A stretch of 64,000 bases of DNA from Nitrosopumilus sp. Its GTDB lineage: Archaea > Thermoproteota > Nitrososphaeria > Nitrososphaerales > Nitrosopumilaceae. The DNA lies in the NCBI GenBank assembly GCA_965206745.1, contig OZ242220.1, positions 320,001-384,000 of the forward strand. The letters are read 5' to 3'. The notes under the pieces are model-generated. The model saw only the letters and a program-made list of their open reading frames with translations, was not told the origin of the DNA and made no database searches. The position numbers and the translations under genes were made by a program. Positions 1,219 through 34,737 of this stretch are shown piece by piece; positions within the stretch are counted from its first letter, which is position 1; each line of letters begins with the position of its first letter.

Positions 1219-3657
1219 TTGAATAAAATACACTCGATATCATTCCTATTGTTATTTGTAGTCACGCTAACTAGTATGCCAATTAACCCCATTTTTGCCG
1301 CTGATGATGACCTGGATAAGGACGGCATTGATGATTCCCTTGATGCATGTCCTAATCTGCAAGAAGATTATGAAGGAACACTTGATGGCTGTCCATCAAA
1401 TTTTGTCCCATGGTATGATGAGGATTATGATGGAATACAGGATCACATTGATCAATGTCCAAATTTGAAAGAACACTACAACAAATTCCAAGATGACGAC
1501 GGCTGTCCAGACACACTTCCCGGAGATGGAGCAGGCGGAGCACCGGATACTGATAAAGATGGATTCACTGATTTTGCTGACTTGTGTCCAAACCAACCAG
1601 AAACTTTCAACGGTGTTCAAGATAGAGATGGCTGTCCCGATTCTTATGATTCTGGTGACAGAGATTTGGACGGCGTTTCAGATGTTGATGATGAGTGTCC
1701 GCTGAGTGCAGAAACTTACAACAAATTCGAGGACGCTGACGGCTGTCCTGATGTGGTTGATGATTCAAGTTTTGTAGACACTGACAACGATGGCATTCAA
1801 GACAAAATTGATTTATGTATTGATAAACCAGAAGTGTACAACGGTTATAGAGACACTGATGGCTGTCCCGACGTTGGACTAGATTCCTCATTTGATGATG
1901 GGGACGGGGATGGAATCGCTGATCAATTCGATATCTGTCCTGATCATCCTGAAACTTTTAACCGCTTTGCAGATTATGACGGCTGTCCCGACAAAGCCAT
2001 CGTCCTTGATGGCACGTTAAACGATGCAGATGGTGACAGAGTTGCTGATGTTGATGACTCTTGCCCGTTAGATCCTGAAAGATACAATGGCTTCCAAGAC
2101 GATGACGGCTGTCCCGACATTCCAGACTCTTCTAGTGATACTGATTCAGACCTTGATGGAATTTTCAACAGCATTGATCAATGTCCTAACGTAAAAGAGA
2201 CTTACAACCAGTTCCAAGATCAAGACGGCTGTCCCGACTTTGTAGCCTCTAACAAAGGAGTTCCAGATTCAGACGGTGATGGAATCAACGACTTTGCAGA
2301 TTTATGTCCAAACCGACCAGAGACCTTCAATGGTGAATTTGATAGAGACGGCTGTCCCGACAATGACGATCCCGGTGACAGAGATCAAGACGGCATTCCA
2401 GATAATATAGACGCATGTCCAACTGCTAAAGAAAATTACAATAATGTCAAAGATGATGACGGTTGCCCAGATGGCGGATTCCAATCACGGGGATTGGACT
2501 TTGACGGTGACAATATAGATGATTTGAATGACAAATGTCCTTTGCAACCAGAGACCGTAAATAACTACCAAGATCAAGACGGATGTCCGGATCTCTTTGT
2601 ATCTGATACTGACGGTGATGGAATTCGTGATACATTAGATTTGTGCCCTTCAACTTCAGAAACATGGAATTATTACCAAGATCAAGACGGTTGCCCTGAT
2701 GAGCTGTCTGACTTTGATTCTGACTATGATGGAATTTCAGACTCTGTAGATGAGTGTATTTTTGAGCGAGAAAGGTACAATGACTACCAAGACGATGACG
2801 GCTGCCCTGACTATCCAGACTTTGTCACCACTATGGATACTGACTTTGATGGAATAGATGACGAATTTGATCAATGCCCACTAGTCTCTGAGACTTATAA
2901 TAAATTCCAAGATCTAGACGGCTGCCCTGATTATTTAGGGGATGGCAAAACAACTCCAGATTCTGACGGTGATGGAATCAATGATTACAATGATCATTGT
3001 CCAAACCAGCCAGAAACGTATAACGATATTCTAGATCGAGACGGCTGTCCTGATGACAACATTTCAAAGCATGACAGAGATGGGGATGGAATTCGAGATA
3101 TAATTGATGCATGTCCAAACGCCCAAGAAACCTGGAATAAATTCCATGATGATGACGGCTGCCCTGATTCCGTGTTTGAATCAGTTGTAGTAGATTCGGA
3201 CAATGATGGAATCAATGATGTCTATGATGATTGCCCACTAGTTACTGAAAATTATAATGGCTTCCAAGACGATGACGGCTGTCCAGATATTGATAACACT
3301 CAGCCTGATGCTGACGGTGACGGCGTTCCAGATGTAATGGATGTGTGTCCGCAACAGGATGAGGTTTGGAACAAGTATGTAGACTATGACGGCTGCCCTG
3401 ATACTGTCCCAACTGCAAATATTGTGTATGATACTGATGATGATGGCATAAATGATGAATTTGATTTATGTATAAACGAAAAAGAATCCTGGAACAAATA
3501 CAATGACCATGACGGCTGCCCTGATATAGCGCCAGAACAGTCAAGATACAAGCATGATGCCGACCTTGATGGCATTGTTAATGAATATGACAGCTGCCCA
3601 TTAGAGGTTGAGGATTATGACGGTGACCGAGATCAAGACGGTTGTCCTGACCAATAG
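1219..3657 (+). CDS. Secreted thrombospondin type-3 repeat (Ca-binding) protein, copy 1
   Basis: N-terminal signal peptide; about 20 units of DxDxDGIxDxxDxCPxxxExYNxxxDxDGCPD; TTG start. Confidence 0.9.
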   Translation: MNKIHSISFLLLFVVTLTSMPINPIFAADDDLDKDGIDDSLDACPNLQEDYEGTLDGCPSNFVPWYDEDYDGIQDHIDQCPNLKEHYNKFQDDDGCPDTLPGDGAGGAPDTDKDGFTDFADLCPNQPETFNGVQDRDGCPDSYDSGDRDLDGVSDVDDECPLSAETYNKFEDADGCPDVVDDSSFVDTDNDGIQDKIDLCIDKPEVYNGYRDTDGCPDVGLDSSFDDGDGDGIADQFDICPDHPETFNRFADYDGCPDKAIVLDGTLNDADGDRVADVDDSCPLDPERYNGFQDDDGCPDIPDSSSDTDSDLDGIFNSIDQCPNVKETYNQFQDQDGCPDFVASNKGVPDSDGDGINDFADLCPNRPETFNGEFDRDGCPDNDDPGDRDQDGIPDNIDACPTAKENYNNVKDDDGCPDGGFQSRGLDFDGDNIDDLNDKCPLQPETVNNYQDQDGCPDLFVSDTDGDGIRDTLDLCPSTSETWNYYQDQDGCPDELSDFDSDYDGISDSVDECIFERERYNDYQDDDGCPDYPDFVTTMDTDFDGIDDEFDQCPLVSETYNKFQDLDGCPDYLGDGKTTPDSDGDGINDYNDHCPNQPETYNDILDRDGCPDDNISKHDRDGDGIRDIIDACPNAQETWNKFHDDDGCPDSVFESVVVDSDNDGINDVYDDCPLVTENYNGFQDDDGCPDIDNTQPDADGDGVPDVMDVCPQQDEVWNKYVDYDGCPDTVPTANIVYDTDDDGINDEFDLCINEKESWNKYNDHDGCPDIAPEQSRYKHDADLDGIVNEYDSCPLEVEDYDGDRDQDGCPDQ

Positions 3658-3667
3658 GAGTGTCTAA

Positions 3668-5833
3668 ATGAAAAAACAATATCTTTTGGGATTTTTACTC
3701 CTGCTTACATCCACCATTGGCATGATGCCAACTAGTGTTTTTGCTGCCTCTGAAATTGATTCAGACAATGACGGTGTGCCAAATTATTTGGATCAATGCC
3801 CCAACCTTCTAGAGGATTATGATCCCCAGTACGGCAACAATGTTGACGGCTGTCCTGCAGACTTTGTTCCGTGGTACGATGCTGATTATGACGGAATACA
3901 AGATCATATAGATGACTGTCCCACTGTAAAAGAGACTTACAACAAGTTCCAGGATGAGGATGGCTGCCCGGATTTATCCCTTGATGGCGGAAAAGCCATT
4001 GCAGATACTGACGGCGACAGTTATCCAGATTTCCTGGATAACTGCCCAACTCAGCCAGAGACATTCAATGGAGTTGATGATGGTGACGGTTGCCCAGATG
4101 ATGTCATTACACAACCCGACTCTGACCAAGACGGAATCTCCGATTCCCTTGATTCATGTCCGCTAAAGCCTGAGAGTTACAACAGATTCCAGGATGATGA
4201 CGGCTGCCCGGACTCGTCTGATTCAGCAAACCCGCAGTATCAATTCCCTGACACTGACGGCGATGGGATTGAGGATAGGTGGGATTCATGTATCGATATA
4301 CCCGAAAACTATAATGATTTCCTAGATGATGACGGCTGTCCTGACGTGCTTGGGGCGATCTCTCTTGAAATACCAGATGCTGATCATGATGGCATTGCAG
4401 ATGATGTGGATGATTGTCCACTAGAGCGTGAAAATTACAATAAATTCCAAGATTCTGACGGCTGTCCTGACGTGCTAGTTCTTACAATAACCCGTGATAC
4501 TGACGATGATGGCATTTTAGATCAAGATGATTCTTGCCCATACGCTCCTGAGACTTATAATAAATTCAAGGATTTTGACGGCTGCCCTGATTACATAGCA
4601 GACAACAAACTTACATTTGATACTGACGGCGACGGAATAATTGACAACTTGGACCACTGTTCAAACCAGCCAGAAACGTATAACGGTATTCTAGATGAGG
4701 ACGGCTGCCCTGACAATGATTCCACATCTGACCAAGATTATGATGGTATTTTGGACGCTTTAGATGCATGTCCGCTAGAACCTGAAACATACAACAGACA
4801 TCTTGATGATGACGGCTGCCCTGATTCCCCTGATTATACCACATTCTCTTACACGTTCCCTGATACTGACGGCGACGGGATTGAGGACAGGTGGGACGCG
4901 TGTATCGATATACCAGAAAACTATAATGATTTCCTAGATACTGACGGATGTCCTGATGTCCCAGGATCATCTACAGTAAATCTGTTTGATGCTGATCGTG
5001 ACGGATTGCCAGATGACTTGGATGCCTGTCCCACATCAGCTGAAAGATACAATGGCTTCCAGGATGATGACGGCTGTCCAGACAGCATTGACTATCAGAG
5101 CATTGGTGACACTGACGGTGATGGAATATTTGATGATGTAGATAAATGCCCTGCATCCAAAGAAAGCTATAACCGTTTCCAAGACACTGACGGTTGCCCC
5201 GATTACATAGCAGACAACAAACTTACATTTGATACTGACGGCGACGGAATAATTGACAACTTGGACCACTGTTCAAACCAACCAGAAACGTATAACGGTA
5301 TTCTAGATGAGGACGGCTGTCCTGACAATGATTCCACATCTGACCAAGATTATGATGGTATTTTGGACGCTTTAGATGCATGTCCGCTAGAACCTGAAAC
5401 ATACAACAGACATCTTGATGATGACGGCTGTCCTGATTCCCCTGATTATACCACATTCTCTTACACGTTCCCTGATACTGACGGTGACGGGATTGAGGAC
5501 AGGTGGGATTCGTGTATCGATATACCTGAAAACTATAATGACTTTCTAGATACTGACGGATGTCCTGACGTGCCTGGTGCAGAATCAACCATTCCTGTTT
5601 ATGCAGATTCTGACGGCGACGGATACCTAGATGTAGCTGATTCATGTCCGACAAGCCCTGAAACTTGGAACAAGTATCTAGACTGGGACGGCTGCCCTGA
5701 CACTGCCCCAGAACAACAGAGATTCATCCATGATGATGATCTAGATGGCATTATCAATGGTGAAGATTCATGTCCTTTTGATCCTGAGGATTATGACGGT
5801 GACCGTGATTTGGACGGCTGCCCAGACTCATAA
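3668..5833 (+). CDS. Secreted thrombospondin type-3 repeat protein, copy 2
   Basis: Signal peptide MKKQYLLGFLLLL; same DGCPD repeat units; GGAG 5 nt or so upstream of ATG. Confidence 0.9.
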   Translation: MKKQYLLGFLLLLTSTIGMMPTSVFAASEIDSDNDGVPNYLDQCPNLLEDYDPQYGNNVDGCPADFVPWYDADYDGIQDHIDDCPTVKETYNKFQDEDGCPDLSLDGGKAIADTDGDSYPDFLDNCPTQPETFNGVDDGDGCPDDVITQPDSDQDGISDSLDSCPLKPESYNRFQDDDGCPDSSDSANPQYQFPDTDGDGIEDRWDSCIDIPENYNDFLDDDGCPDVLGAISLEIPDADHDGIADDVDDCPLERENYNKFQDSDGCPDVLVLTITRDTDDDGILDQDDSCPYAPETYNKFKDFDGCPDYIADNKLTFDTDGDGIIDNLDHCSNQPETYNGILDEDGCPDNDSTSDQDYDGILDALDACPLEPETYNRHLDDDGCPDSPDYTTFSYTFPDTDGDGIEDRWDACIDIPENYNDFLDTDGCPDVPGSSTVNLFDADRDGLPDDLDACPTSAERYNGFQDDDGCPDSIDYQSIGDTDGDGIFDDVDKCPASKESYNRFQDTDGCPDYIADNKLTFDTDGDGIIDNLDHCSNQPETYNGILDEDGCPDNDSTSDQDYDGILDALDACPLEPETYNRHLDDDGCPDSPDYTTFSYTFPDTDGDGIEDRWDSCIDIPENYNDFLDTDGCPDVPGAESTIPVYADSDGDGYLDVADSCPTSPETWNKYLDWDGCPDTAPEQQRFIHDDDLDGIINGEDSCPFDPEDYDGDRDLDGCPDS
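4589..5577 (+). repeat. Near-identical direct repeat of about 375 bp (4589-~4965 and 5201-~5577, offset 612 bp) inside TSP3 copy 2
   Basis: DYIADNKLTFDTDGDG...DTDGCPDVPG occurs twice with almost identical DNA. Confidence 0.9.
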
Positions 5834-5916
5834 CCCTCTTTGGTTTCTAATTTTAAAAGAATCAATTTAACGTGAGACTTAATAAATACTTGATAATAGC
5901 TGTTCTTAGAGGGATA

Positions 5917-8088
5917 ATGAAAAAACAATACATTTTAGGATTTTTACTCTTGCTTACATCCACCATTGGCATGATGCCGCCTGGCGTATATGCTAATGAT
6001 GAGATTGATATTGACGGTGACGGGGTACCAAACAGCCTTGATCTGTGCCCCCATCTTCTGGAGGACTATGATCCCCAGTATGGCGACAATGTTGACGGCT
6101 GCCCTGCAGACTTTGTTCCTTGGTATGATGTTGATTATGACGGAATACAAGATCATCTTGATGGCTGTCCCACTGTAAAGGAGACTTACAACAAGTTCCA
6201 GGATGACGACGGCTGCCCGGATTTGTATTCTGATGATGGAAAATCAATTGCAGATACTGACGGTGATGGTTATCCAGATTTCCTGGATAACTGCCCAACC
6301 CAGCCAGAGACATTCAATGGAATTGATGACGGCGACGGCTGCCCAGATGACGCTGTAGCCCAATCAGACACTGACCAGGATGGAATCTCAGATTCCCTTG
6401 ATTCATGTCCGCTAAAGCCTGAGACTTATAACAGATTTGAGGATGACGATGGCTGCCCGGACTCGTCTGATTCGGCAAACCCGCAGTATCAATTCCCTGA
6501 CACTGACGGCGACGGGATTGATGATAGATGGGATCAATGTATTGATGAACCGGAAAATTATAATGAATTCCTAGACTGGGATGGCTGTGCAGACGTGCTT
6601 GGTTCGGACTCTAATGCATTAGTTGATTCTGATTATGACAGCATTCTTGATTCAGTTGATTCATGTCCGCTAGAGCGTGAAAATTTTAACAAATTCCAAG
6701 ATGATGACGGCTGTCCTGACGAGATTGAATTTTCAATTACAGGTGACTCTGACGGTGATGGAATCTCCGATCAATTCGACACGTGTCCTAATTCTAAGGA
6801 GACATACAACCAATACAAGGATGCAGACGGTTGTCCCGATTTTGTCGCAGACAACAAATTCACATTTGACTCTGACGGCGATGGAATAATTGATAACTTG
6901 GATCATTGTCCAAACCAACCAGAAACATATAACGATATTTTGGATTTTGATGGCTGTCCTGACAATGACGATTCAGCGATTGATTCAGACATGGACGGAA
7001 TTGTAGATGTATCTGATGCATGTCCGCTAGAACCTGAAACATACAACCTTTTCAAAGACGGTGACGGCTGCCCTGATTTCTCCGAGTCTGTCCTCTCCTC
7101 TTACCTGTTCCCTGACACTGACGGCGACGGGATTGAGGACAGGTGGGATTCGTGTATTGACGAACCTGAAAACTATAATGACTTTCTAGATACTGACGGC
7201 TGCCCGGACGTTACAGGGTTTTCAAAACCTGCCTTGCCTGACTCTGACTATGATGGAATCCCAGACGAATCTGACATGTGTCCCACCATCGGTGAGAGAT
7301 ACAATCAATTCCAGGATGACGACGGCTGCCCTGACACCGTATCCTATGATTCATTTGGTGATGCTGATTTTGATGGAATAACTGACAATGTTGATGACTG
7401 CCCTACTGCTAGGGAAACTTATAACAGATTCCAGGATGATGACGGCTGCCCTGATCTGATTTTTGATAACAGAGTTGCTGTTGACTCTGATGGCGACGGA
7501 ATTCCTGATACTGATGACCGGTGTCCTACTCAGCTTGAAACACCCAACGGATTCCAGGATGAGGACGGCTGCCCTGACCGATTCACATTTACGCTTGATT
7601 CAGACACGGACGGAATTATAGATGTGTCTGATGCATGTCCGCTAGAGCCTGAAACTTACAACTTTTTCCAGGATGATGACGGCTGCCCTGATGTGGTTGG
7701 CACCATTATTCCATCTTACCTCTTTGCCGATATGGACAATGATGGCATTGATGACAAAAAAGACGCATGCATTGATCAACAGGAGAACTTTAACGGATAC
7801 CTGGACTGGGACGGCTGCCCTGATGTGTTGGTAGAGGCATCAGCGGCCATCCCAAGACCCGACTCTGATGATGATGGATACTATGATGCCATTGATTCAT
7901 GTCCGACAAACCCAGAAACATGGAACAAATACAACGATCATGACGGCTGCCCTGATACTGCTCCAGAACAACAGAGATTTGTCCATGATAATGATCTAGA
8001 TGGCATTCTCAACGATGAAGATTTGTGCCCTTCTGATCCTGAGGATTATGACGGTGACCGTGATTTGGACGGCTGCCCTGATTCCTAG
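5917..8088 (+). CDS. Secreted thrombospondin type-3 repeat protein, copy 3
   Basis: Start moved to ATG 5917 (MKKQYILGFLLLL, matching copy 2); colinear paralog of copy 2. Confidence 0.9.
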   Translation: MKKQYILGFLLLLTSTIGMMPPGVYANDEIDIDGDGVPNSLDLCPHLLEDYDPQYGDNVDGCPADFVPWYDVDYDGIQDHLDGCPTVKETYNKFQDDDGCPDLYSDDGKSIADTDGDGYPDFLDNCPTQPETFNGIDDGDGCPDDAVAQSDTDQDGISDSLDSCPLKPETYNRFEDDDGCPDSSDSANPQYQFPDTDGDGIDDRWDQCIDEPENYNEFLDWDGCADVLGSDSNALVDSDYDSILDSVDSCPLERENFNKFQDDDGCPDEIEFSITGDSDGDGISDQFDTCPNSKETYNQYKDADGCPDFVADNKFTFDSDGDGIIDNLDHCPNQPETYNDILDFDGCPDNDDSAIDSDMDGIVDVSDACPLEPETYNLFKDGDGCPDFSESVLSSYLFPDTDGDGIEDRWDSCIDEPENYNDFLDTDGCPDVTGFSKPALPDSDYDGIPDESDMCPTIGERYNQFQDDDGCPDTVSYDSFGDADFDGITDNVDDCPTARETYNRFQDDDGCPDLIFDNRVAVDSDGDGIPDTDDRCPTQLETPNGFQDEDGCPDRFTFTLDSDTDGIIDVSDACPLEPETYNFFQDDDGCPDVVGTIIPSYLFADMDNDGIDDKKDACIDQQENFNGYLDWDGCPDVLVEASAAIPRPDSDDDGYYDAIDSCPTNPETWNKYNDHDGCPDTAPEQQRFVHDNDLDGILNDEDLCPSDPEDYDGDRDLDGCPDS

Positions 8089-8147
8089 CGGGGATATCTG
8101 TCAATATTTTTGACATACTAGATATATCGAATCTGTAATGTTCTAAC

Positions 8148-9110
8148 ATGCTTCCAAAGTTTTCCAGTCGGGCGTTTTTAGCTCCCATGGCAGGAGTCAG
8201 TGATCCCGCACTTCGTTTGCAGTGCAAGAAAATGGGCGCCGGACTGGTTGTTACAGAATTTACAAACATCCACAGTATTGTTGCAAAAGAGACCCAGCTC
8301 AAAGAAAGAATGAAGACCATTGAGGAGTTCATTGAATACTCTGATCAGGAGCGCCCTCTCTCAATCCAACTGTTCGGTTCTGATCTTTTGGCATTGGAAA
8401 AGGCAGCACAGATAGTAGAGCCTTTTTTTGACATCATTGATTACAATATGGGCTGCCCTGCACCGCATATTACCCAACAGATGGCCGGAGGCGCCCTGCT
8501 ACAGGAAGTCAACCTGACTCAGCAGATCTTTCACACTCTGGTAAGTGCAGTAAAAAAGCCTGTGACGCTAAAAATTCGTTCAGGAGTCACAGATGCCAGC
8601 AAATTCCTCTTTAGGGAAATTGCAGGGATTGCAGAAGACGAGGGAATCCAGATGATTACCCTTCATCCGAGAACTGTAAGTCAGGGTTATTCTGGGACCG
8701 CCAATTGGGATCTGATCAAAGAACTAAAAGAGATTTCTGGCATTCCAATTGTTGGAAATGGCGATATTACAACTCCTGAGGATGCCAAGACAATGATTGA
8801 TAATACTAATTGTGATTACGTCATGATTGGCAGGGGTGCGATGGGGAACCCCTTTATTTTTGAGCAGATCAATGACTTTTTGAAGACTGGCTCTTACAAG
8901 GAATATTCATTCCATGATAGGCTGGACTCTTTTTTTGATTACTTGCATCTCTCAAGTCAGTACAAGATCAAATTTGCAAACATCAAGGGCCAGGCCATGA
9001 GATTTACTAAAGGAATGAAGGGCGGCTCAAAACTTCGTTCAAAAATCACTCTCTCTACAAATATTGAAGAGCTAGAGAAGCTTATGCGTGATGCCTACGT
9101 GCAATCTTAG
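8148..9110 (+). CDS. dus: tRNA-dihydrouridine synthase (DusB family)
   Basis: LAPMAGVSD, NMGCPAP, HPRT, GNGDI and MIGRGAMGNPFIF motifs. Confidence 0.93.
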   Translation: MLPKFSSRAFLAPMAGVSDPALRLQCKKMGAGLVVTEFTNIHSIVAKETQLKERMKTIEEFIEYSDQERPLSIQLFGSDLLALEKAAQIVEPFFDIIDYNMGCPAPHITQQMAGGALLQEVNLTQQIFHTLVSAVKKPVTLKIRSGVTDASKFLFREIAGIAEDEGIQMITLHPRTVSQGYSGTANWDLIKELKEISGIPIVGNGDITTPEDAKTMIDNTNCDYVMIGRGAMGNPFIFEQINDFLKTGSYKEYSFHDRLDSFFDYLHLSSQYKIKFANIKGQAMRFTKGMKGGSKLRSKITLSTNIEELEKLMRDAYVQS

Positions 9111-9449
9111 AGATGTTTTACGCCGGTTCAAATCTATTCATGCTTGCGTACTCTGGTGGGAGTCATCTGCAGCATGACGTAAAAGCAAGACCATGACATG
9201 GAATATCTGATAAAAACAAAAAAGCGTGTAACTAGTGCCTGTGAGGCATACATGTCTGCAAAAATTCTAAACGAGGGCTGCCTCATTGATTATGGCGTGT
9301 ATCTCCGTCACTAGGGAATGGAATTAAGCACGTATTTCGTGCGCAAAATCATGATTTTACTCAGATGTAGCATAAGATCCATCCATGACAGGATTCAATC
9401 CGTCTGAATACATAGTAAATCTCTTATTGAATCAAATTATTAAAATTTA

Positions 9450-12400
9450 TTGAATCAAGTCATTCTGTTAGCAATATCACTAATTTTAGTCGCTTCAACG
9501 GGTCTAGGATCATCTTATGCTCAAAATTATGATGATATTATACAAGGATGGGATGATTATGTCCAATCATACAAGGACTATGTAGAGGAATACCGAAAGT
9601 ATGTGGAAAAATATGAAGATTATGTGCAAGAATACAAGAATTATATGCAAAAATACAAAATATGGGATGATAATGTCGCCAGCAGTCTAGAATCAGAGAA
9701 TAAAGGTGTGAAATCTGAGTTTGTCATAATCAAATCAAAATTAAGCAAAATAGTGCTAGAAATTAAAACAGTGCCTGTCACCACGACCAAAGTTGTAGAA
9801 CCTGCCACCAAACCCAAGACTGTAGAACTAACAGAGCCTGCCACCAAACCCAAGACTGTAGAACTAACAGAGCCTGCCACCAAACCCAAGACTGTAGAAC
9901 TAACAGAGACTGCCACCACACCCAAAGTTGTAGAACCTGCCACCAAGCCCAAGACTGTAGAACTAACAGAGCCTGCCACCAAGCCTAAAACTGTAGGATC
10001 TAATCCAGCTATTGCACCACAAACAGGCAACTCTGCAGACACGACACCATCAACCAGCAACGAACCTATGGAATGGTATTATGAAGATGGAAGTTTGCAA
10101 GGACGTGAAGAATATTATGAGGATGGACAAAAGAAAAAGAAGACAGAATATGATGGCAAAACTATCAGTGTAGAAAAGCAGTGGTATGACAATGGACAAC
10201 TGATGTCACACGTTGAGTATCATCATGATGGAAAACTGCGAGAAAAACATCAATATGATGAGAATGGAAAAAACACAACGTCCGTAAAATACTATGAGAA
10301 CGGACAACTACAAGAAGATTATCAATATAATGAAAATGGAAATCCAAAGTTTTACAAAGAATATGCTGAGGATGGTGACTTAGATCAAGAAATATCCTAT
10401 TATGAAAATGGAAATAAGAAATCACAAACAAAATATTTTTACGGAGAAAAAGGTCGTGTATGGGACTATTATGAAAATGGAAATAAAAAATTAGAGACAA
10501 ACTATTCTTACGGAAAAATAGTTCGTGTATGGGAATATAATGAAAATGGTCAACGTATAAAGTATTATGATATGAATGGCAACCCTGCACCATTGGATAT
10601 TGATACAACATCACCTAACATGTGGTATGACATAGATGGAAATTTGGAATATTATGAAGAATATTATGAGGATGGATCAAAGAAAAAACTGATAAAATAT
10701 TCTGAAAATGGAAATATTAAAAGAGAAAACCTATGGCATGAGAATGGACAGCCAGCATTGACCCTCAGATATGATCGGACTGGACCACTGGAACGAGAAT
10801 ATCGAACTGATGAAAATGGAAAAATCCTAGTTGATGTATATTATCACGAGAATGGACAACTAAGGGCTGAATCCCTATATTATGAAAATGGTGAAAAGGA
10901 ATTTGATAGCAAATATTATGAAAATGGTGAAAAGGAATCTGATAGCAAATATTATGAAAATGGTGAAGAGAACTCTTATAGCAGATATTATGAAAATGGT
11001 GAAAAGGAATCTGATAAAAGATATTATGAAGATGGGAGTTTGAAATCAGCATCCCATTATGATGAAAATGGAAATTTGGAATCAAAAATAGAATATGATG
11101 CCGACGGGCAACTAGAAGAGCTTCAATATCATGAAAATGGAAATACAAAGCTTCACAAAAAATATCATGATGACGGTAGCCTCTACACAGAAACATTCTA
11201 TTATGAAAGTGGACGTACGAAATCTGAAATATATTATGATGCTAACGAACAAGTAGATAGTGTAAGAGACTATTATGAAGATGGCAACCATGTATCTTCT
11301 TATGACATATACGGCAACCCTGTACCACAACATCCTGACACAACATTACATAACACATTGTATGATAGAAATGGAAATGCAAAATATTCTGAAGAATATT
11401 ATGAGGATGGATCAAAGAAAAAACTGATAAAATATTCTGAAAATGGAGGTATTAGTGAAGAAAACCGATGGTATGAGGATGGAAGTTTACAAGCACATGA
11501 AGAATATTATGAGGACGGACAAAAGAAAAAGATTACAGAATATCATCCAAATGGAGCAGTCACCGGAGAAGAAAAATGGTATGAGGATGGAACTCCAATG
11601 TCAACTCTTGGTTATAGTAATAATGGGCAACTGACCCGAGAATATCGAGTTGATGAGGATGGTACAGTCACAGTTAATGCATGGTATGATTCCGATGGGA
11701 GTTTAGAGGAAGTTGAAGAGCATTATGAAAATGGACAAATAAAAAAGAAGACACAATATCATGGTGATGAAACTCTCCGTCAAGAAGAACAATGGTATGA
11801 GAATGGACAAGTAATGTCATACATTGAGTATTATCAGAACGGACAACTGCAACACCAATATCAAAATGATGAGAATAGAAAAAACACAATGTGGGTAAAA
11901 TACTATGAGAACGGACAACTACAAGAAGACACTCGATATCATGAAAATGGAAATCTAAAGTTTCACAAAAAATATCATGAGAATGGTGACCTAGACCGAG
12001 AAACACACTATCATGAAAATGGAAATGAGAAATCAGACATATCTTATGGTACTAACGGACAAATAAACAGTGCGTGGGACTATTATGAAAATGGTCATCC
12101 TGTATTTTCTTATGATGAAAATGGCCACCCTACGTCATTGGATGCTGATACAACATCACCTAACAATGAGCCTAAAACATGGTATTATAGAAATGGAAAT
12201 TTGCAAGCACATGAAGAATATTATGAGGATGGTTCAAAGAAAAAGCTGACACATTACCTTGATAGTGGTAGTGCATATAGTAGCATTACTGGATATGAAG
12301 TAACACAATGGTCTGAGGGAGGAGATCTAACGTCTAGAATCAAGTATTATGAGGGAGGAGAAATAGACGTTGAATATAGACTTGATGAGAATGGAAAAGT

Positions 12401-12587
12401 CATAATTGACATAAGTTATTATGAGAATGGACAAATATTCAACGAATACATATATCATGAAAACGGTGAAACGAAATCTTATAACGTCTATTATAGAGAT
12501 GGGACCATGAAGTCAGAATCCCATTATGATGAAGATGGAAATTTTGAATCAAAGAAAGAATATGATGAGAGCGGGCAACTAAAATGA
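9450..12587 (+). CDS. Secreted MORN-variant/YwqK-like repeat protein with Tyr-heptad helix and P/T/K/E-rich linker, copy 1
   Basis: Signal peptide; dozens of YYENG/YYEDG beta-hairpin repeats; visibly AT-rich. Confidence 0.8.
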   Translation: MNQVILLAISLILVASTGLGSSYAQNYDDIIQGWDDYVQSYKDYVEEYRKYVEKYEDYVQEYKNYMQKYKIWDDNVASSLESENKGVKSEFVIIKSKLSKIVLEIKTVPVTTTKVVEPATKPKTVELTEPATKPKTVELTEPATKPKTVELTETATTPKVVEPATKPKTVELTEPATKPKTVGSNPAIAPQTGNSADTTPSTSNEPMEWYYEDGSLQGREEYYEDGQKKKKTEYDGKTISVEKQWYDNGQLMSHVEYHHDGKLREKHQYDENGKNTTSVKYYENGQLQEDYQYNENGNPKFYKEYAEDGDLDQEISYYENGNKKSQTKYFYGEKGRVWDYYENGNKKLETNYSYGKIVRVWEYNENGQRIKYYDMNGNPAPLDIDTTSPNMWYDIDGNLEYYEEYYEDGSKKKLIKYSENGNIKRENLWHENGQPALTLRYDRTGPLEREYRTDENGKILVDVYYHENGQLRAESLYYENGEKEFDSKYYENGEKESDSKYYENGEENSYSRYYENGEKESDKRYYEDGSLKSASHYDENGNLESKIEYDADGQLEELQYHENGNTKLHKKYHDDGSLYTETFYYESGRTKSEIYYDANEQVDSVRDYYEDGNHVSSYDIYGNPVPQHPDTTLHNTLYDRNGNAKYSEEYYEDGSKKKLIKYSENGGISEENRWYEDGSLQAHEEYYEDGQKKKITEYHPNGAVTGEEKWYEDGTPMSTLGYSNNGQLTREYRVDEDGTVTVNAWYDSDGSLEEVEEHYENGQIKKKTQYHGDETLRQEEQWYENGQVMSYIEYYQNGQLQHQYQNDENRKNTMWVKYYENGQLQEDTRYHENGNLKFHKKYHENGDLDRETHYHENGNEKSDISYGTNGQINSAWDYYENGHPVFSYDENGHPTSLDADTTSPNNEPKTWYYRNGNLQAHEEYYEDGSKKKLTHYLDSGSAYSSITGYEVTQWSEGGDLTSRIKYYEGGEIDVEYRLDENGKVIIDISYYENGQIFNEYIYHENGETKSYNVYYRDGTMKSESHYDEDGNFESKKEYDESGQLK

Positions 12588-12814
12588 GATTTTAAATCCA
12601 TGCCTTTTTTTATTTTAAATTAATACTGGGTTTATCGGTTTAATCATATCTAGTTGGTACACCATAATTTCTGGATTGAGCATGAATTAAGTACGTATTT
12701 CGTGTGCAAAATCATAATTTTACTCTCAGATGTGACCGGAGATCCATCTGTGACAGGATTCAATCCTTTTGAATACATAGTAAATTTCTTATTGAATCAA
12801 ATCATTAAAATTTA

Positions 12815-15415
12815 TTGAATCAAATCATTCTGTTAACCGTATCGCTAATTTTAGTTGCTTCAACGGGTCTAGGATCATCTTATGCTCAAAATTATGACGA
12901 TATTATACAAGGATGGGATGATTATGTCCAATCATACAAGGACTATGTAGAGGAATACCAAAAGTATGTGGAAAAATATGAAGATTATGTGCAAGAATAC
13001 AAGAATTATATGCAAAAATACAAAATATGGGATGATAATATCGTCAACAGTCTAGAATCAGAGAATAAAGGTGTGAAATCTGAGTTTGTCATAATCCAAT
13101 CAAAATTAAGCAAAATAGCGCTAGAAATTAAAACAGAGCCTGTTACCACGCCCAAAACTGTAGAACCTGCCACCAAACCCAAAACTGTAGAACCAACAGA
13201 GCCTGTTACCACGCCCAAAACTGTAGAACCTGTCACTAAACCCAAAACTGTAGAACCAACAGAGCCTGTTACCACGCCCAAAACTGTAGAACCTGTCACT
13301 AAACCCAAAGTTGTAGAACCTGCCACCAAACCCAAAACTGTAGAACCAACAGAGCCTGTTACCACGCCCAAAACTGTAGAACCTGCCACCAAACCCAAAA
13401 CTGTAGAACCAACAGAGCCTGTTACCACGCCCAAAACTGTAGAACCTGTCACTAAACCCAAAACTGTAGAACCTGTCACTAAACCCAAAACTGTAGAACC
13501 AACAGAGCCTGCCACCACGTCTTCTATTGTAGAATCTAATCCAGATACTGCACCACAAACAGGCAACTCTACAGACACAGCACCAACATCATCAACCGGC
13601 AACGAACCTGTAGAATGGTATTATGAAGATGGAAGTTTGCAAGGACGTGAAGAATATTATGAGGATGGACCACTAATGCTGTCCATTTATTATTATCCGA
13701 ATGGACAACTACAAGAAAAATATCAATGGGATGAGAATGGAGAAAACACAGTATGGATAAGATATTATGAGAACGGACAACTACTAGAAGAGTATCAATA
13801 TTATGAAAATGGAAATAACAAGTTTCACAAAAAATATTATGAGGATGGTAACCTCGACATAGAAATACTCTATTATGAAAATGGAAATGAGAAATCAGAA
13901 AGACGTTATGATCCTAACTTACAAGTGTATTATCTACATCATTATTATGAAAATGGTAAATATGTATATTCTTATGATAAACATGGCAACCCTGCACCAC
14001 AACATACTGACACAACATCACCTAACACATGGTATTATCAAAATGGAAATTTGAAATTATATGAAGAATATCATGAGGATGGATCCGTGAAAAAGGAGAT
14101 AGTATATTATGAAGATGGGGGTATTGATGAAGAAAACCAATGGTTTGAAGATGGACAACGAATGTCGTCCATCGGGTATTATCCGAATGGACAAATGCTA
14201 GATAAGAGTCAATATGATGAAAATGGAAAAAAATTAGTTGATGTATATTATCATGAGGATGGGCAAATAAGGTATGAATTCCTTCCTCATGAAAATGATG
14301 AAAAGAAATCTGATGACAGATATTATGAAGATGGAAGTTTGCAAGTACATGAAGAATATCATGACGATGGAAGTTTGCAAGTACGTGAAGAATATTATGA
14401 AGATGGACAAAAGAAAAAGAGGACACAATATCATCCAAATGGAACCATCATTGACGAAGAACAATGGCATCCAAATGGTGTTCGGATGTCATTCATCAGT
14501 TATCATCTTAATGGACAACTAAGAAGTGAATATAGACTTGATGAGAATAGAAAAATCATAATTCATAGATCGTATTATGACAATGGGAATTTAAAGACAG
14601 TTCAAGAACGTTATGAAAATGGAGAATATAAAAAGAGGACACAATATTATGATGATGAAACTCTCTATATCGAAGAACAATGGTATGACAATGGACAATC
14701 AATGTCGTACATTGTGTATTACCAAAATGGACAAATGGAAGAAAAATATCAATATGATGAGAATGGAAGAGTTCTGTTTAAAGCAGGTTATCATGAAAAT
14801 GGAGAAATAAGTTACGAATTAACATCTTATGAAAATGGAAATCGAAAGTCTTGGCAAACATATTCTGGGGATGGCCACAAAAAAATACACTATTATGAAA
14901 ATGGACATGAGAAATCTCAAATATATTATGATGCTAACGGACAAATAGATAATGCATGGGACTATTATGAAAATGGTCAGTATGTATCTTTTTATGATAT
15001 AAATGGCAATCCTATACCATTGGATGCTGATATAACATCATCTAATATCTGGTCTGATCCTGTACCATTGGATATTGATACAACATCACCTAACAGATGG
15101 TATGATAGAAATGGAAATTTGCAAAATTATGTAGAATATTATGAGGATGGATCAAAGAAAAAGCAGATAACATATTATGAAAATGGAGATATCAAAATAG
15201 AAGATCAATGGCATGAGAATGGACAACTAGTATCGACCATCAATTATGATCAGAGTGGACAAATAAGTCATGAATCTTTATATCATGAAAATGGTGAAAT
15301 AAAAATTTATAACGTTTATTATGAAGATGGGACTTTGAAATCAAAATTCCATTATGATGAAGATGGAAATCTGGAATCAAAGAAAGAATATGATGAGAAC
15401 GGGCAACTAAAATGA
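12815..15415 (+). CDS. Secreted MORN-variant/YwqK-like repeat protein, copy 2
   Basis: Paralog of 9450..12587 with near-identical N-terminal ~105 aa and C-terminal end. Confidence 0.8.
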   Translation: MNQIILLTVSLILVASTGLGSSYAQNYDDIIQGWDDYVQSYKDYVEEYQKYVEKYEDYVQEYKNYMQKYKIWDDNIVNSLESENKGVKSEFVIIQSKLSKIALEIKTEPVTTPKTVEPATKPKTVEPTEPVTTPKTVEPVTKPKTVEPTEPVTTPKTVEPVTKPKVVEPATKPKTVEPTEPVTTPKTVEPATKPKTVEPTEPVTTPKTVEPVTKPKTVEPVTKPKTVEPTEPATTSSIVESNPDTAPQTGNSTDTAPTSSTGNEPVEWYYEDGSLQGREEYYEDGPLMLSIYYYPNGQLQEKYQWDENGENTVWIRYYENGQLLEEYQYYENGNNKFHKKYYEDGNLDIEILYYENGNEKSERRYDPNLQVYYLHHYYENGKYVYSYDKHGNPAPQHTDTTSPNTWYYQNGNLKLYEEYHEDGSVKKEIVYYEDGGIDEENQWFEDGQRMSSIGYYPNGQMLDKSQYDENGKKLVDVYYHEDGQIRYEFLPHENDEKKSDDRYYEDGSLQVHEEYHDDGSLQVREEYYEDGQKKKRTQYHPNGTIIDEEQWHPNGVRMSFISYHLNGQLRSEYRLDENRKIIIHRSYYDNGNLKTVQERYENGEYKKRTQYYDDETLYIEEQWYDNGQSMSYIVYYQNGQMEEKYQYDENGRVLFKAGYHENGEISYELTSYENGNRKSWQTYSGDGHKKIHYYENGHEKSQIYYDANGQIDNAWDYYENGQYVSFYDINGNPIPLDADITSSNIWSDPVPLDIDTTSPNRWYDRNGNLQNYVEYYEDGSKKKQITYYENGDIKIEDQWHENGQLVSTINYDQSGQISHESLYHENGEIKIYNVYYEDGTLKSKFHYDEDGNLESKKEYDENGQLK

Positions 15416-15667
15416 GATTTTAAATCCATGCCTTTTTTTATTTTAAATTAATACTGGGTTTATCGGTTTAATCATATCTAGTTGGTACACCATTTTCTGG
15501 ATTGAGCATTCTGCCTGGAATCACAAGTTCACCTGTGACTATGGCCATATCAGTCCGTATTTGTTTATGATATATTGAAATTTTATGTTGAATTTTCAGA
15601 TGAATTGGACTATTCTTATATATTCCAAGATCCTATTTCAAGCATGAAAATAGGAGTCAGATCATAA

Positions 15668-15907
15668 TTGGCCACAGCCTACGTTCTCATAAACTGTGAG
15701 CTGGGTTCTGAAGAAGCAGTCATCTCAGAACTAAAATCAATTGAAGGTGTCGTTGAAGTGCATGGTACCTTTGGAGCGTATGATATTTTAGCAAAAGTCC
15801 AGTCAAGTCAAGTCGAAGCATTGCGTGAGACTATAACTTGGAAGATAAGGAAGATCCCAAAAATTCGCTCAACATTGACCCTGATGGGCATTGAAGGCCA
15901 GCAGTAA
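15668..15907 (+). CDS. Lrp/AsnC ligand-binding (RAM) domain protein
   Basis: AYVLINCELGSE...VHGTFGAYDILAKV...IRSTLTL signature. Confidence 0.88.
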   Translation: MATAYVLINCELGSEEAVISELKSIEGVVEVHGTFGAYDILAKVQSSQVEALRETITWKIRKIPKIRSTLTLMGIEGQQ

Positions 15908-16138
15908 CTTCCCAATGTCATCTGTTTTTATACTTTGATTGCAACACTGTACCATCCCTTCTAAGACACGTTCCCCCAAAGGGACAACGACCTGAGAGGA
16001 ACAGTGAATCCTCTCAGCAGTATTTTTTGCATGACTCTGGTTTTAGATGTGATGGCTCATTGGTTTACAGTTTGGGCACATGCAGCAAACCGTGATTTTT
16101 CATTAATCTATACGCACATATCTTGATAAAGAAAATGA

Positions 16139-16480
16139 TTAGAGGGCCTCAGAACCGCTCTTTTTAGATGATATGTTCAGAACGTTATCCACACTAGACA
16201 CAATAACAATTCCATCCCCGCCATTTCCTGTATAAGCTGCATCAGAGATTGCTTTGGAAATCTTTTCCACTTCTGAGTCATCTACAATTGTGCTTATCGT
16301 GGCAACTTCATTGTATTCTGCAGTGACAGTACCTGTTCCTCTTCCAGATCTAATCTCTTGTCGAGTTCCAGAACCTCTGCCTTTTCCTTCCAGGATGGTA
16401 AATCCTCCAGCAATACCACTTATTGCCTCTGTTACCATGCCAATTTTGGTTGCTTGAACAGTTGCTTCAATTCGTTTCAT
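16139..16480 (-). CDS. glnB: P-II family nitrogen regulatory protein
   Basis: MKRIEA, GKGRG T-loop entry, AAYTGNGGDGIVIVS B-loop. Confidence 0.85.
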   Translation of the reverse strand: MKRIEATVQATKIGMVTEAISGIAGGFTILEGKGRGSGTRQEIRSGRGTGTVTAEYNEVATISTIVDDSEVEKISKAISDAAYTGNGGDGIVIVSSVDNVLNISSKKSGSEAL

Positions 16481-16608
16481 TTGCATTGATTCTTTTGTGT
16501 CGCTTAAAAAAGATCATATGTTTTTATTCAAATTTTATGATACTATGGAACCTAGCTGGTTATGTCATAATCCACCTCACCTTTTTAGTGCATAAGAAAA
16601 GTAAGATT

Positions 16609-16785
16609 ATGAAAAGTGATGAAAAGAGATCTCATAGACTCAACTATCTTTTGAAATGCTACCTGATGAATCCCAAGGAAAACGATCTATATCAGAGAGC
16701 AAAGCAGATGGGTGTCACTGATTCCACAGCCAAGGATTACATCAGAACCGTCATAATTCAAGCGCAAAAAATCTGTGCAAAGTAG
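16609..16785 (+). CDS. Small hypothetical protein (possible HTH-like)
   Basis: Plausible start MKSDEKRSHRL within the ORF track 16423..16785. Confidence 0.55.
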   Translation: MKSDEKRSHRLNYLLKCYLMNPKENDLYQRAKQMGVTDSTAKDYIRTVIIQAQKICAK

Positions 16786-16831
16786 CTTTTTAACATATAT
16801 TCATAAATAATCAATTGACAAGTAAATACAC

Positions 16832-17521
16832 ATGGCAGATTCGATCCTGGATGATGCAAAGGCGCTTTTGGATAAGGACTTTGGGGATGATAGAATTCTA
16901 AAGCAAATTTGCAGAGCGTGTGAAAATAATGAAATAATTAGCAATTATGAAAGAAACTATGTCAAAGAATTGGCTGAAAAACATCTGGAGAAAAAACCAG
17001 AGTTCACTGAAACACATGTTCAGGAAACACCGTTGATTCCCGATGTTGTAATTCCCAACACACAGCAAACCATGCAAGCACAATCATATCCGACCGTTGC
17101 ACCAAGGATAGCTCGCTCAAGATTGAAGAACAAAAAAATCATGTTCGGCATTGTCGGACTGGCATTGATAGTTATCGTTACGGCGGCCGTATCCTTTAGC
17201 GGTTTTACCATTGATATTGGAGATATTGACCCCGTCAGACCCTCATCTTCATTATCTGTCCAGACTGATTTAGGATTATACAACAACAAGGATCTGATTT
17301 CAATTAATGGCGCCTCTGACACTGCCGGGACTGTCACCCTCTCGATAGTAAACCCAGACAACAAACTTGTGTGGACCGAACAGATCTCCTTGAAGAGTGA
17401 TGGGAGCTATTCCACATTGACCATTGCAGGAGGTTCAGATTGGGAAAAGTCTGGAGCCTACGCCCTCAAAGTGGACAATGGCAGAGACACAGAATCTATT
17501 GCATTCTCATTTACTGCGTGA
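16832..17521 (+). CDS. Hypothetical single-pass membrane protein with C-terminal Ig-like domain
   Basis: Central TM helix; C-terminal YNNKDLISING...GAYALKV beta-sandwich pattern. Confidence 0.75.
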   Translation: MADSILDDAKALLDKDFGDDRILKQICRACENNEIISNYERNYVKELAEKHLEKKPEFTETHVQETPLIPDVVIPNTQQTMQAQSYPTVAPRIARSRLKNKKIMFGIVGLALIVIVTAAVSFSGFTIDIGDIDPVRPSSSLSVQTDLGLYNNKDLISINGASDTAGTVTLSIVNPDNKLVWTEQISLKSDGSYSTLTIAGGSDWEKSGAYALKVDNGRDTESIAFSFTA

Positions 17522-34086: not shown

Positions 34087-34737
34087 ATGGTCTGGTTAAG
34101 ACGATGTACACACTACTTGTTCATAGTAGTGGTTGCAGTTAACTCTACACTGTTAACAATTAATGCAGGAGATTACATCTTCTACACTGACTGGGCTTGG
34201 ACTTCGTACACGGTATTTTCAATATCGCAGACGTTGATGCTTATTGTAGGTGCTACATACTATCTTACATTTACGGGCGTTCCAGGCACAGCAACGTACT
34301 ACGCTCTAATTATGACAGTATACACATGGATAGCAAAAGGTGCATGGTTTGCACTCGGATACCCATATGACTTCATTGTAACTCCAGTTTGGCTACCCTC
34401 AGCGATGCTGTTGGACTTGGTTTACTGGGCAACAAAGAAGAACAAGCACTCCTTGATACTGTTTGGCGGCGTACTGGTAGGAATGTCATTACCATTGTTC
34501 AACATGGTAAACCTGATAACAGTAGCAGACCCACTAGAAACGGCATTCAAATATCCAAGACCGACATTGCCACCCTACATGACACCGATAGAACCGCAGG
34601 TAGGCAAGTTCTATAACAGCCCAGTTGCTCTCGGTGCGGGTGCAGGTGCGGTGTTGGCGTGTACGTTTGCAGCCCTGGGTTGTAAATTGAACACTTGGAC
34701 ATACAGATGGATGGCCGCTTGGTCAAAGTGGGACTAG
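34087..34737 (+). CDS. amoA: Ammonia monooxygenase subunit A
   Basis: MVWLRRCTHYLF...GDYIFYTDWAW...WMAAWSKWD, 216 aa. Confidence 0.99.
   Translation: MVWLRRCTHYLFIVVVAVNSTLLTINAGDYIFYTDWAWTSYTVFSISQTLMLIVGATYYLTFTGVPGTATYYALIMTVYTWIAKGAWFALGYPYDFIVTPVWLPSAMLLDLVYWATKKNKHSLILFGGVLVGMSLPLFNMVNLITVADPLETAFKYPRPTLPPYMTPIEPQVGKFYNSPVALGAGAGAVLACTFAALGCKLNTWTYRWMAAWSKWD

Follow-up and report, generated by a model that had tools for sequence, protein, structure and literature searches.

Two adjacent genes, here called A and B, form a tandem pair in a 64,000-nucleotide (nt) window of the Nitrosopumilus sp. assembly GCA_965206745.1 (contig OZ242220.1, hereafter C1; the window is C1:320001-384000, and coordinates without the prefix C1 are those of the window). 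Both are open reading frames (ORFs) on the + strand, at 9450-12587 (1045 amino acids, aa) and 12815-15415 (866 aa), in which a hydrophobic leader, a small helical head and a Pro/Thr-rich stalk are followed by a long core of MORN_2 repeats. We show that the two genes are kept alike at their ends, whereas their cores match segments of other, dispersed paralogues in the same genome. Judged from the sequence, this conserved-flank, variable-core pattern appears to be a recombination mosaic that arose by gene conversion, not programmed hypervariation. Taken as a whole, the evidence makes it probable that A and B are exported, anchor-less, adhesin-like binders and that gene conversion and block exchange produced the pattern.

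Homogenised ends and mosaic cores

Each gene sits in a unit together with its upstream and downstream DNA, and this unit has been duplicated head-to-tail (9321-12683 and 12684-15509); blastn and repeat families place the boundary at 12683/12684, where a preliminary description of this DNA had put the junction (~12683). That description had also reported near-identical gene starts, last codons and downstream DNA, which we recover as 89.8% identity over 645 nt at the 5' side (9321-9963 vs 12684-13319, blastn), 94-98% DNA identity over codons 1-100, and 87.7% identity over 301 nt at the 3' side (12385-12683 vs 15213-15509, blastn). The 129 nt 5' of the starts are 87.8% identical and the 96 nt 3' of the stops 97.9% identical. 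Identity between the two units is thus 88-99% at the ends and falls to 63-84% in windows of the core. The reported difference in repeat number is likewise real (~68 twelve-residue units in A vs ~50 in B), the slip-type indel after GREEYYEDG is present, with A going on QKKK... and B going on PLM..., and the region is indeed AT-rich (GC content 0.34-0.36 vs 0.41 for the genome).

The sliding-window comparison proposed in the preliminary description showed that divergence is not uniform along the genes. Synonymous divergence (dS) between A and B rises from 0.066 over codons 1-107 to 0.23 along the stalk, 0.37 along the core and 0.65 over the final 83 codons. Over codons 1-105, dS (0.07) is low together with nonsynonymous divergence (dN, 0.04), suggesting recent homogenisation and not purifying selection alone. 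The same contrast is seen between two paralogues that lie 690 kilobases (kb) apart on opposite strands, C1:288229 and C1:979196 (head dS 0.08, C-terminal dS 0.56), and over the last 80 codons dS is 0.34-0.89 in all ten paralogue pairs.

The cores had been described as diverged from each other, a simple account that gives way to mosaicism with other paralogues. A 375-nt tract of A (gene nt 2026-2400, window 11475-11849) is 95-99% identical, with a dS of 0.10, to C1:218881, a gene 110 kb off, and 78-83% identical to B. Similarly, A nt 601-750 are nearest to C1:979196 (91-93%, vs 76% to B) and B nt 2401-2550 to C1:218881 (92%, vs 79% to A), and every block of the A core finds its best-matching block in a paralogue other than B. 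A and B are therefore each other's closest kin at their ends only. To this extent the earlier idea of a repertoire holds, in that family members vary in repeat number and content and swap segments.

A stronger form of that idea is that A and B belong to a diversifying receptor or decoy repertoire, with cores positively selected by viruses, grazers, toxins or a host and a 5' cassette that acts as homology anchor for shuffling. The exchange of segments among at least four paralogues and the differing repeat numbers are consistent with it. As to whether the core is under DIVERSIFYING selection, codons were assigned to classes by their place in the repeat register and not by whether they differed: the five scaffold positions gave a dN/dS of 0.40 (181 codons) and the seven variable register positions 0.75 (bootstrap 95% interval 0.52-1.06; 252 codons). 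Values near 1 in several 40-codon windows, together with the overall 0.75, might be taken to favour diversification, but the ratio is not above 1. Moreover, the conserved head has a low dS, compared with 0.37-0.65 further on, a signature that points to conversion at the 5' end instead of selection on the core and departs from the hypervariability by diversifying selection first put forward.

The variable residues had further been expected on one face of the sheet. Model strands comprise register positions 7-12 and 1, and strand alternation would place positions 7, 9, 11 and 1 on one side and 8, 10 and 12 on the other; apart from the conserved Tyr at position 1, the two sets are equally variable, so that both faces appear to vary and no single hypervariable face stands out. 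The dN/dS and face results agree with a relaxed constraint on both open surfaces and do not demonstrate positive selection. A diversity-generating retroelement target was ruled out, as reverse transcriptase (PF00078) had no match in this 99.6%-complete genome, the control search having matched 3 of 14 genomes.

Contigs of four sequencing runs were compared over the region. One run (X1) hardly departs from the window and is a possible source of it. Contigs of run X3, which belongs to a different study but carries an identical organism label, differ by 0.6-0.7% in the flanks and long stretches of B (3/411, 4/703, 0/400). In parts of the A core they differ by 2.3% (12/532), 4.7% (14/296) and ~8% (11/146; 12/138), and beside the last two pieces 18 nt stand in place of an 87-nt stretch. 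The pieces over 10234-10604 are nearer to A than is any paralogue of this genome (76-88%), which makes patchy allelic divergence likely there. Greater variation in parts of the A core than in the flanks and much of B would suit a diversifying repertoire, but the X3 contigs, which are short and end within repeats, might represent paralogues of that strain, and we take allelic variation as a hint only. As for a switching device, the region holds no Rfam element or tRNA gene, and the strain contigs differ but are too short to reveal switching. A positively selected repertoire seems to us unlikely.

Leader, head, stalk and ribbons

The leader of A (aa 1-24, 9450-9521, from a TTG start) is hydrophobic and ends ...GLGSSYA ahead of Q25; the hydrophobic leader of B likewise ends in SYA before Q. 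Of the 15 head-bearing proteins aligned, 13 retain an AYAQ/SYAQ motif, and both A and B look like exported proteins that would be cleaved between SYA and Q. The preliminary description had them exported on a stalk; the leader and the Pro/Thr repeat linker are both in place, and it is as apparent export that the claim stands.

The head (9522-9770 in A; in B, leader and head together occupy aa 1-107, 12815-13135) comprises ~80 residues, which AlphaFold2 predicts to form two antiparallel helices (aa 27-68 and 74-107) folded as a hairpin (predicted local distance difference test score (pLDDT) 90.9, predicted template modelling score 0.72). Its first helix is striped with Tyr or Trp at positions 37, 41, 44, 48, 51, 55, 58, 62, 65, 69 and 72, in steps of 4 and 3 that alternate perfectly, and the head has no Cys. 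No Pfam or NCBIfam family covers it, Foldseek found only generic helical hairpins in the PDB and no match at E<=0.001, and the ESM Atlas gave no usable match. A HMMER scan of 1.84 billion representatives returned just 19 matches at E<=0.001 (best 3.5e-10), among which the N-terminal ones place the head, in metagenomic relatives, before MORN arrays or unrelated passengers; one metagenomic homologue, P0123, runs on into MORN repeats. Elsewhere in the genome, the leader and first part of the head precede a matrixin-like zinc metalloprotease (C1:1618065-1619078, - strand) and a coiled-coil protein (C1:492280-493381, + strand), whose ORF (locus positions 781-1882) overlaps the next ORF (1220-1882) out of frame and is possibly a frameshifted gene. 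Found before such different passengers, the head is a portable module. Prediction of a three-copy head complex scored 0.01 (mark 0.42), which gives no answer either way.

The stalks that follow are built of tandem repeats of different length. In A (9771-10064) Tandem Repeats Finder reports a 36-nt unit in 5.8 copies, with a composition of T 24%, P 15%, K 12%, E 11% and V 11%; in B (aa 108-264, 13136-13606) the tandem units are of 63, 90 and 153 nt with 92-96% identity, and the composition is T 26%, P 21%, V 15%, E 13% and K 12%.

The cores belong to Pfam MORN_2 (PF07661), with whole-protein scores of 57.7 bits for A and 71.3 bits for B (gathering cut-off 29.6). The A core (10065-12587) holds ~68 twelve-residue MORN_2 half-units in four blocks and the B core (13607-15415) is predicted to form three ribbons; short ...NGNPxP...DTTSPN linkers divide the blocks in both genes. 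The period of 12 is exact in 43 of 59 unit-start spacings of A and in 33 of 43 of B. Across 168 units from five paralogues, the conserved register positions are 1-5 (Y, Y/H/D, E, N/D, G; 0-2.2 bits), of which position 5 is Gly in every unit (168/168), and the variable ones are 6-12 (3.1-3.6 bits). The cores are very acidic and rich in Tyr (net charge ~-80 in A and ~-59 in B; Tyr 13-14%) and have no Cys. Both proteins end within the repeats, with no C-terminal anchor and no extra domain. This leaves the head as the sole candidate for retention at the envelope.

This regularity bears on the possibility that the pair is non-functional, decaying repeat DNA that is merely homogenised. Consistent with decay, A and B start at TTG and have lost the ATG used by C1:218881, and their dN/dS is fairly high; none of the listed runs that hold the stretch is recorded as RNA, which is no evidence either way. 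However, frames of 1045 and 866 codons stay open in 35% GC DNA despite a core dS of 0.37, the scaffold dN/dS reported above indicates purifying selection, position 5 never departs from Gly, and the 12-residue register is maintained across indels. We therefore regard decay as very unlikely.

For the B core (aa 262-866), AlphaFold2 predicts 48 strands of seven residues, linked by turns of five (mean pLDDT 84) and arranged in ribbons of 11, 28 and 9 strands with two low-confidence linkers between them. This predicted, unsolved structure shows the hairpins and extended sheet of MORN_2. With VIA-align, it resembles the single-layer sheets of engineered OspA (Z 13.9), the CPAP G-box (Z 10.6) and the MORN region of SET7/9 (Z 7.3), as well as Toxoplasma MORN1 (Z 9.2, 205 of 207 residues aligned); a PDB sequence search with gene B had no match at E<=0.01. 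MORN1 of Trypanosoma, Toxoplasma and Plasmodium is described as an extended sheet and as a protein-protein interaction module (Sajko et al. 2020, PMC7725318), and the predicted sheets of A and B would share its extended, single-layer, antiparallel form. In contrast to A and B, MORN1 as presented there is cytoplasmic, has ~23-residue repeats and dimerises through its C-terminus, and sequence identity is 7-9%.

Foldseek ranks Rhs and teneurin shells first for the B model (E 1e-21), but with TM-scores of 0.08-0.13 and a root-mean-square deviation of ~50 Å, and the likeness of the model to them is one of local hairpin geometry, not of a closed shell. These matches are relevant to a reading of A and B as YwqK-type immunity proteins or Rhs/YD-type toxin shells, as are a weak RHS_repeat match in gene A (23.1 bits vs a cut-off of 22) and database relatives often named 'YwqK family antitoxin'. 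YwqK-type proteins (the YwqJK system) are small, cytoplasmic and encoded beside a toxin gene. A and B share their Pfam repeat family but differ in having an export leader, in their length of 866-1045 aa and in their surroundings: a Pfam scan found no toxin gene or domain within the flanking 8 kb, the neighbours being Dus (tRNA-dihydrouridine synthase), three TSP_3-repeat genes, AsnC and P-II, in accord with the preliminary description. On the leader and the toxin-free neighbourhood a YwqK immunity protein or antitoxin was ruled out. A Rhs/YD toxin shell was rejected likewise, as the proteins stop inside the repeats with no C-terminal or further Pfam domain and flexible linkers cut the arrays into three or four short ribbons (blocks of 9-28 strands). 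We consider this group of explanations extremely improbable.

Insertion, relatives and the upstream module

The pair lies between Dus (8148-9110, + strand; Pfam Dus, E 6e-70), a conserved core gene, and a small Lrp/AsnC-type protein (15668-15907, + strand; Pfam), which directly follows Dus in sister species. Dus orthologues (76-91% identical) were found in 11 of the 15 same-genus genomes searched, and nine of these loci were compared for gene order. In none does a MORN gene follow Dus; AsnC follows at 143-241 nt in eight, and the ninth has P-II there. When five sister-species spacers were aligned, 15560-15667, which includes the AsnC promoter region, aligned with the ancestral Dus-AsnC spacer and 9111-9320 did not, and therefore ~6.4 kb (~9115-15560) has been inserted, with 9111-9320 as its left and 15510-15560 as its right end. 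The right half of the left end (9228-9320) recurs immediately 3' of three MORN genes of the second class described below (blastn, C1:227015, 151214 and 223220; 86-89%). A mobile element was rejected as origin of the insert; no tRNA was found at the insertion, and no search for an integrase was made. Over 8000-17000, Rfam gave no match at E<=0.1 and a tRNA scan no gene.

The search for further copies suggested by the preliminary description located the same head on three more MORN genes, C1:218881, 288229 and 979196, which share the plan of head, stalk and MORN core (class I). A shorter MORN gene at C1:924813 has only the leader in common with them. Class II consists of ~9-10 further MORN genes with a different head, recognised as WING-49 (NCBIfam NF058652) in the one gene tested, C1:196652 (34.5 bits, E 1.6e-8). 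Class-II proteins resemble A and B in leader, small head, Pro/Thr stalk, MORN_2 ribbon, low GC content at third codon positions (GC3) and lack of a C-terminal anchor; they differ in that their head is a 49-residue, two-cysteine domain and not a Cys-free helical hairpin. Membership of A and B among WING-49-headed proteins was rejected, as neither has an NCBIfam match where the class-II gene, used as positive control, scores. Altogether, the MORN family numbers ~15 genes and ~11,600 aa, or ~1.9% of the genome.

Few other genomes have the family. With the head as query, 3 of 24 same-genus species gave weak matches (best E 1.8e-13) and 16 other genera of the order gave none, and the B-core protein search matched 2 of 200 same-family genomes and none of the 16 same-genus genomes searched. 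These two holders are two species of one other genus, with several MORN-like arrays 31-43% identical to the B core. In 5.8 billion proteins, the closest core match among the 8000 candidates scored is 30% identical. A search for PF07661 in 40 relatives had no match, a weak test in that this 22-position model matched 1 of 14 control genomes, and a search of genome contigs with an alignment of the five paralogues gave 597 pattern matches, none confirmed. We conclude that A and B belong to a young, species-specific family nearly confined to this genome.

This distribution matters for a physicochemical alternative, according to which the polyanionic, Tyr-rich ribbons, on their long stalks, serve without a defined protein ligand as extracellular matrix, as a coat capturing cations (ammonium, Ca2+, metals) or as a biofilm scaffold. 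The charge and Tyr content of the cores, the size of the family and the weak constraint on surface positions would accord with such a role, as would the adjacent genes: directly 5' of Dus (1219-8088, + strand) stand three tandem paralogues of 812, 721 and 738 aa, rich in thrombospondin type-3 (TSP_3) repeats of the Ca-binding type. Against it, a family so sparsely represented among relatives cannot serve a general envelope function of these archaea, and we consider the idea unlikely. In sister species, where the loci reach only ~2.5 kb upstream, all three TSP_3 queries match one gene beside Dus.

The DNA upstream of A is itself shared. Its 129-nt module (9321-9449, presumed promoter or 5' region; second copy at 12684-12814, by blastn and repeat families) is found at four other loci, namely C1:218881, where the upstream DNA is 84% identical, and three serpin genes. 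The 220 nt upstream of A (9228-9449) have counterparts of 86-90% identity in the spacers that separate three class-II MORN genes from the serpin genes following them (shared elements at C1:151214-151500, 223220-223504 and 227015-227297; serpin genes following at C1:151501, 223505 and 227298). At these loci homology enters the signal-peptide coding part of A by ~30 nt, and a 20-codon remnant of the class-I leader then overlaps the serpin ATG. On such sequence grounds, the module may be a common promoter or an instance of promoter capture.

The genome has eight full-length serpin genes (Pfam Serpin, E ~1e-118; C1:151648-152754, 223649-224752, 227445-228548 and five genes in 1704020-1713112) and one fragment (1122832-1123017), and the three serpin genes inspected have export leaders. 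According to a paper on a sponge-symbiont archaeon (PMC6790972), secreted serpins are tied to host association, and among ammonia-oxidising archaea that are not host-associated a single species was then known to have a serpin; by that account, so many serpin genes would be unusual in a free-living ammonia oxidiser of this kind. The serpin-gene expansion, linked to the MORN genes by upstream DNA, suggests a lifestyle in close contact with other organisms. A more far-reaching proposal is an archaeal, recombination-driven variable surface system in which the converted upstream module, leader and head would anchor the shuffling of ribbon blocks among at least five loci, giving strain-specific ribbon sets for evasion of viruses or grazers or for host attachment, co-regulated with the secreted serpins through the shared module. 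We offer this as speculation, with the odds well against it.

Part of the downstream element (copies at 12588-12683, with a T-run, and 15416-15509) also recurs: its T-run and the ~50 nt that follow (12605-12676 and 15433-15502) are found at C1:1427111-1427183, 1246148-1246192 and 926156-926218, all intergenic and 83-96% identical, and the piece may be a small repeat that contains a terminator.

The host genome measures 1.86 Mb in two contigs. Its archaeal nature is evident in the window from genes for TBP, a wyosine-synthesis radical-SAM enzyme and a geranylgeranyl-reductase-like protein, and that of an ammonia oxidiser from archaeal amoA at 34132-34680. At C1:1482661-1538847 (- strand), a single ORF of 18,728 codons has an N-terminal export-type leader.

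Proposed origin, known parallels and meaning

The explanation that we favour, of exported binders shaped by conversion and block exchange, runs as follows. Each gene has a copy of the upstream module to itself, and its product would be exported by Sec and cleaved after ...SYA, so that the mature N-terminus is a Tyr-striped helical hairpin. After this head, an extended Pro/Thr stalk would lead to three or four rigid, acidic, Tyr-rich single-layer ribbons, in which the repeating 12 residues make one strand and one turn and the turn carries Y-[YHD]-E-[ND]-G, presenting two solvent-exposed faces for multivalent, adhesin-like ligand binding. The pair arose by the insertion between Dus and AsnC together with tandem duplication; gene conversion has kept 5' ends, heads and downstream DNA similar, and the cores have changed by unequal crossing-over and patchwise exchange with at least three dispersed paralogues.

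Several observations weigh against this explanation. The n-region of the A and B leader lacks a basic residue, and both genes begin at TTG right after an AT-rich stretch, which makes the true start and promoter uncertain. The low dS of the head may stem in part from synonymous-site constraint near the start, the internally repetitive cores align ambiguously, such that core dN and dS are approximate, and the dN/dS of the variable positions, given its upper bound, is compatible with positive selection at a subset of sites. Finally, GC3 is 0.24-0.28 in all MORN paralogues of both classes vs a genome mean of 0.405 (standard deviation 0.099, 674 long ORFs) and 0.46 in the neighbouring Dus. Such low values may point to a foreign origin, with repeat-driven codon bias as the alternative.

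Among described systems, the exported MORN2 (PF07661) expansion of actively invading Fusobacterium comes closest. There, signal peptides are reported on 87% of 697 MORN2 genes, expansion is ascribed to local duplication, recombination between repeats is proposed, and adhesion is predicted rather than tested (McGuire et al. 2014, PMC4222103). As far as that account goes, the Fusobacterium genes have in common with A and B the Pfam repeat, the leaders, local duplication, variation in repeat number and a merely predicted adhesion. A and B differ in being archaeal, in their hairpin head, Pro/Thr stalk and linker-cut ribbons, in the size of the family (~15 genes vs tens) and in the patchwise conversion between dispersed copies that can be seen directly. 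Of these features, we regard as new that the host is an archaeon, that the head is a helical hairpin, that ribbons alternate with linkers and that the conversion tracts are plain in the sequence. A literature search on secreted MORN proteins in Thaumarchaeota returned, judged by titles, nothing about such proteins.

Mycoplasma Vlp and Vsa families offer another parallel, with conserved promoter, signal and N-terminus, a body of variable repeat number and recombining paralogues. A and B resemble them in their conserved 5' ends, variable repeat bodies and several recombining paralogues. Unlike in Mycoplasma, no invertible promoter, homopolymer tract or silent cassettes were seen at A and B, and what is shown is evolutionary mosaicism, of a pattern common in repeat-rich paralogues.

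Within these bounds, the A/B pair shows cleanly, and in a form that can be dated, how dispersed paralogues of an archaeon undergo gene conversion and exchange blocks. Little is known of what ammonia-oxidising archaea place beyond the S-layer, and this genome devotes ~2% of its length to MORN ribbons that are predicted to be exported and are rare in relatives. As the ribbons stand on two different small heads, the combination of head, stalk and passenger looks like a general, anchor-free display route in these archaea.

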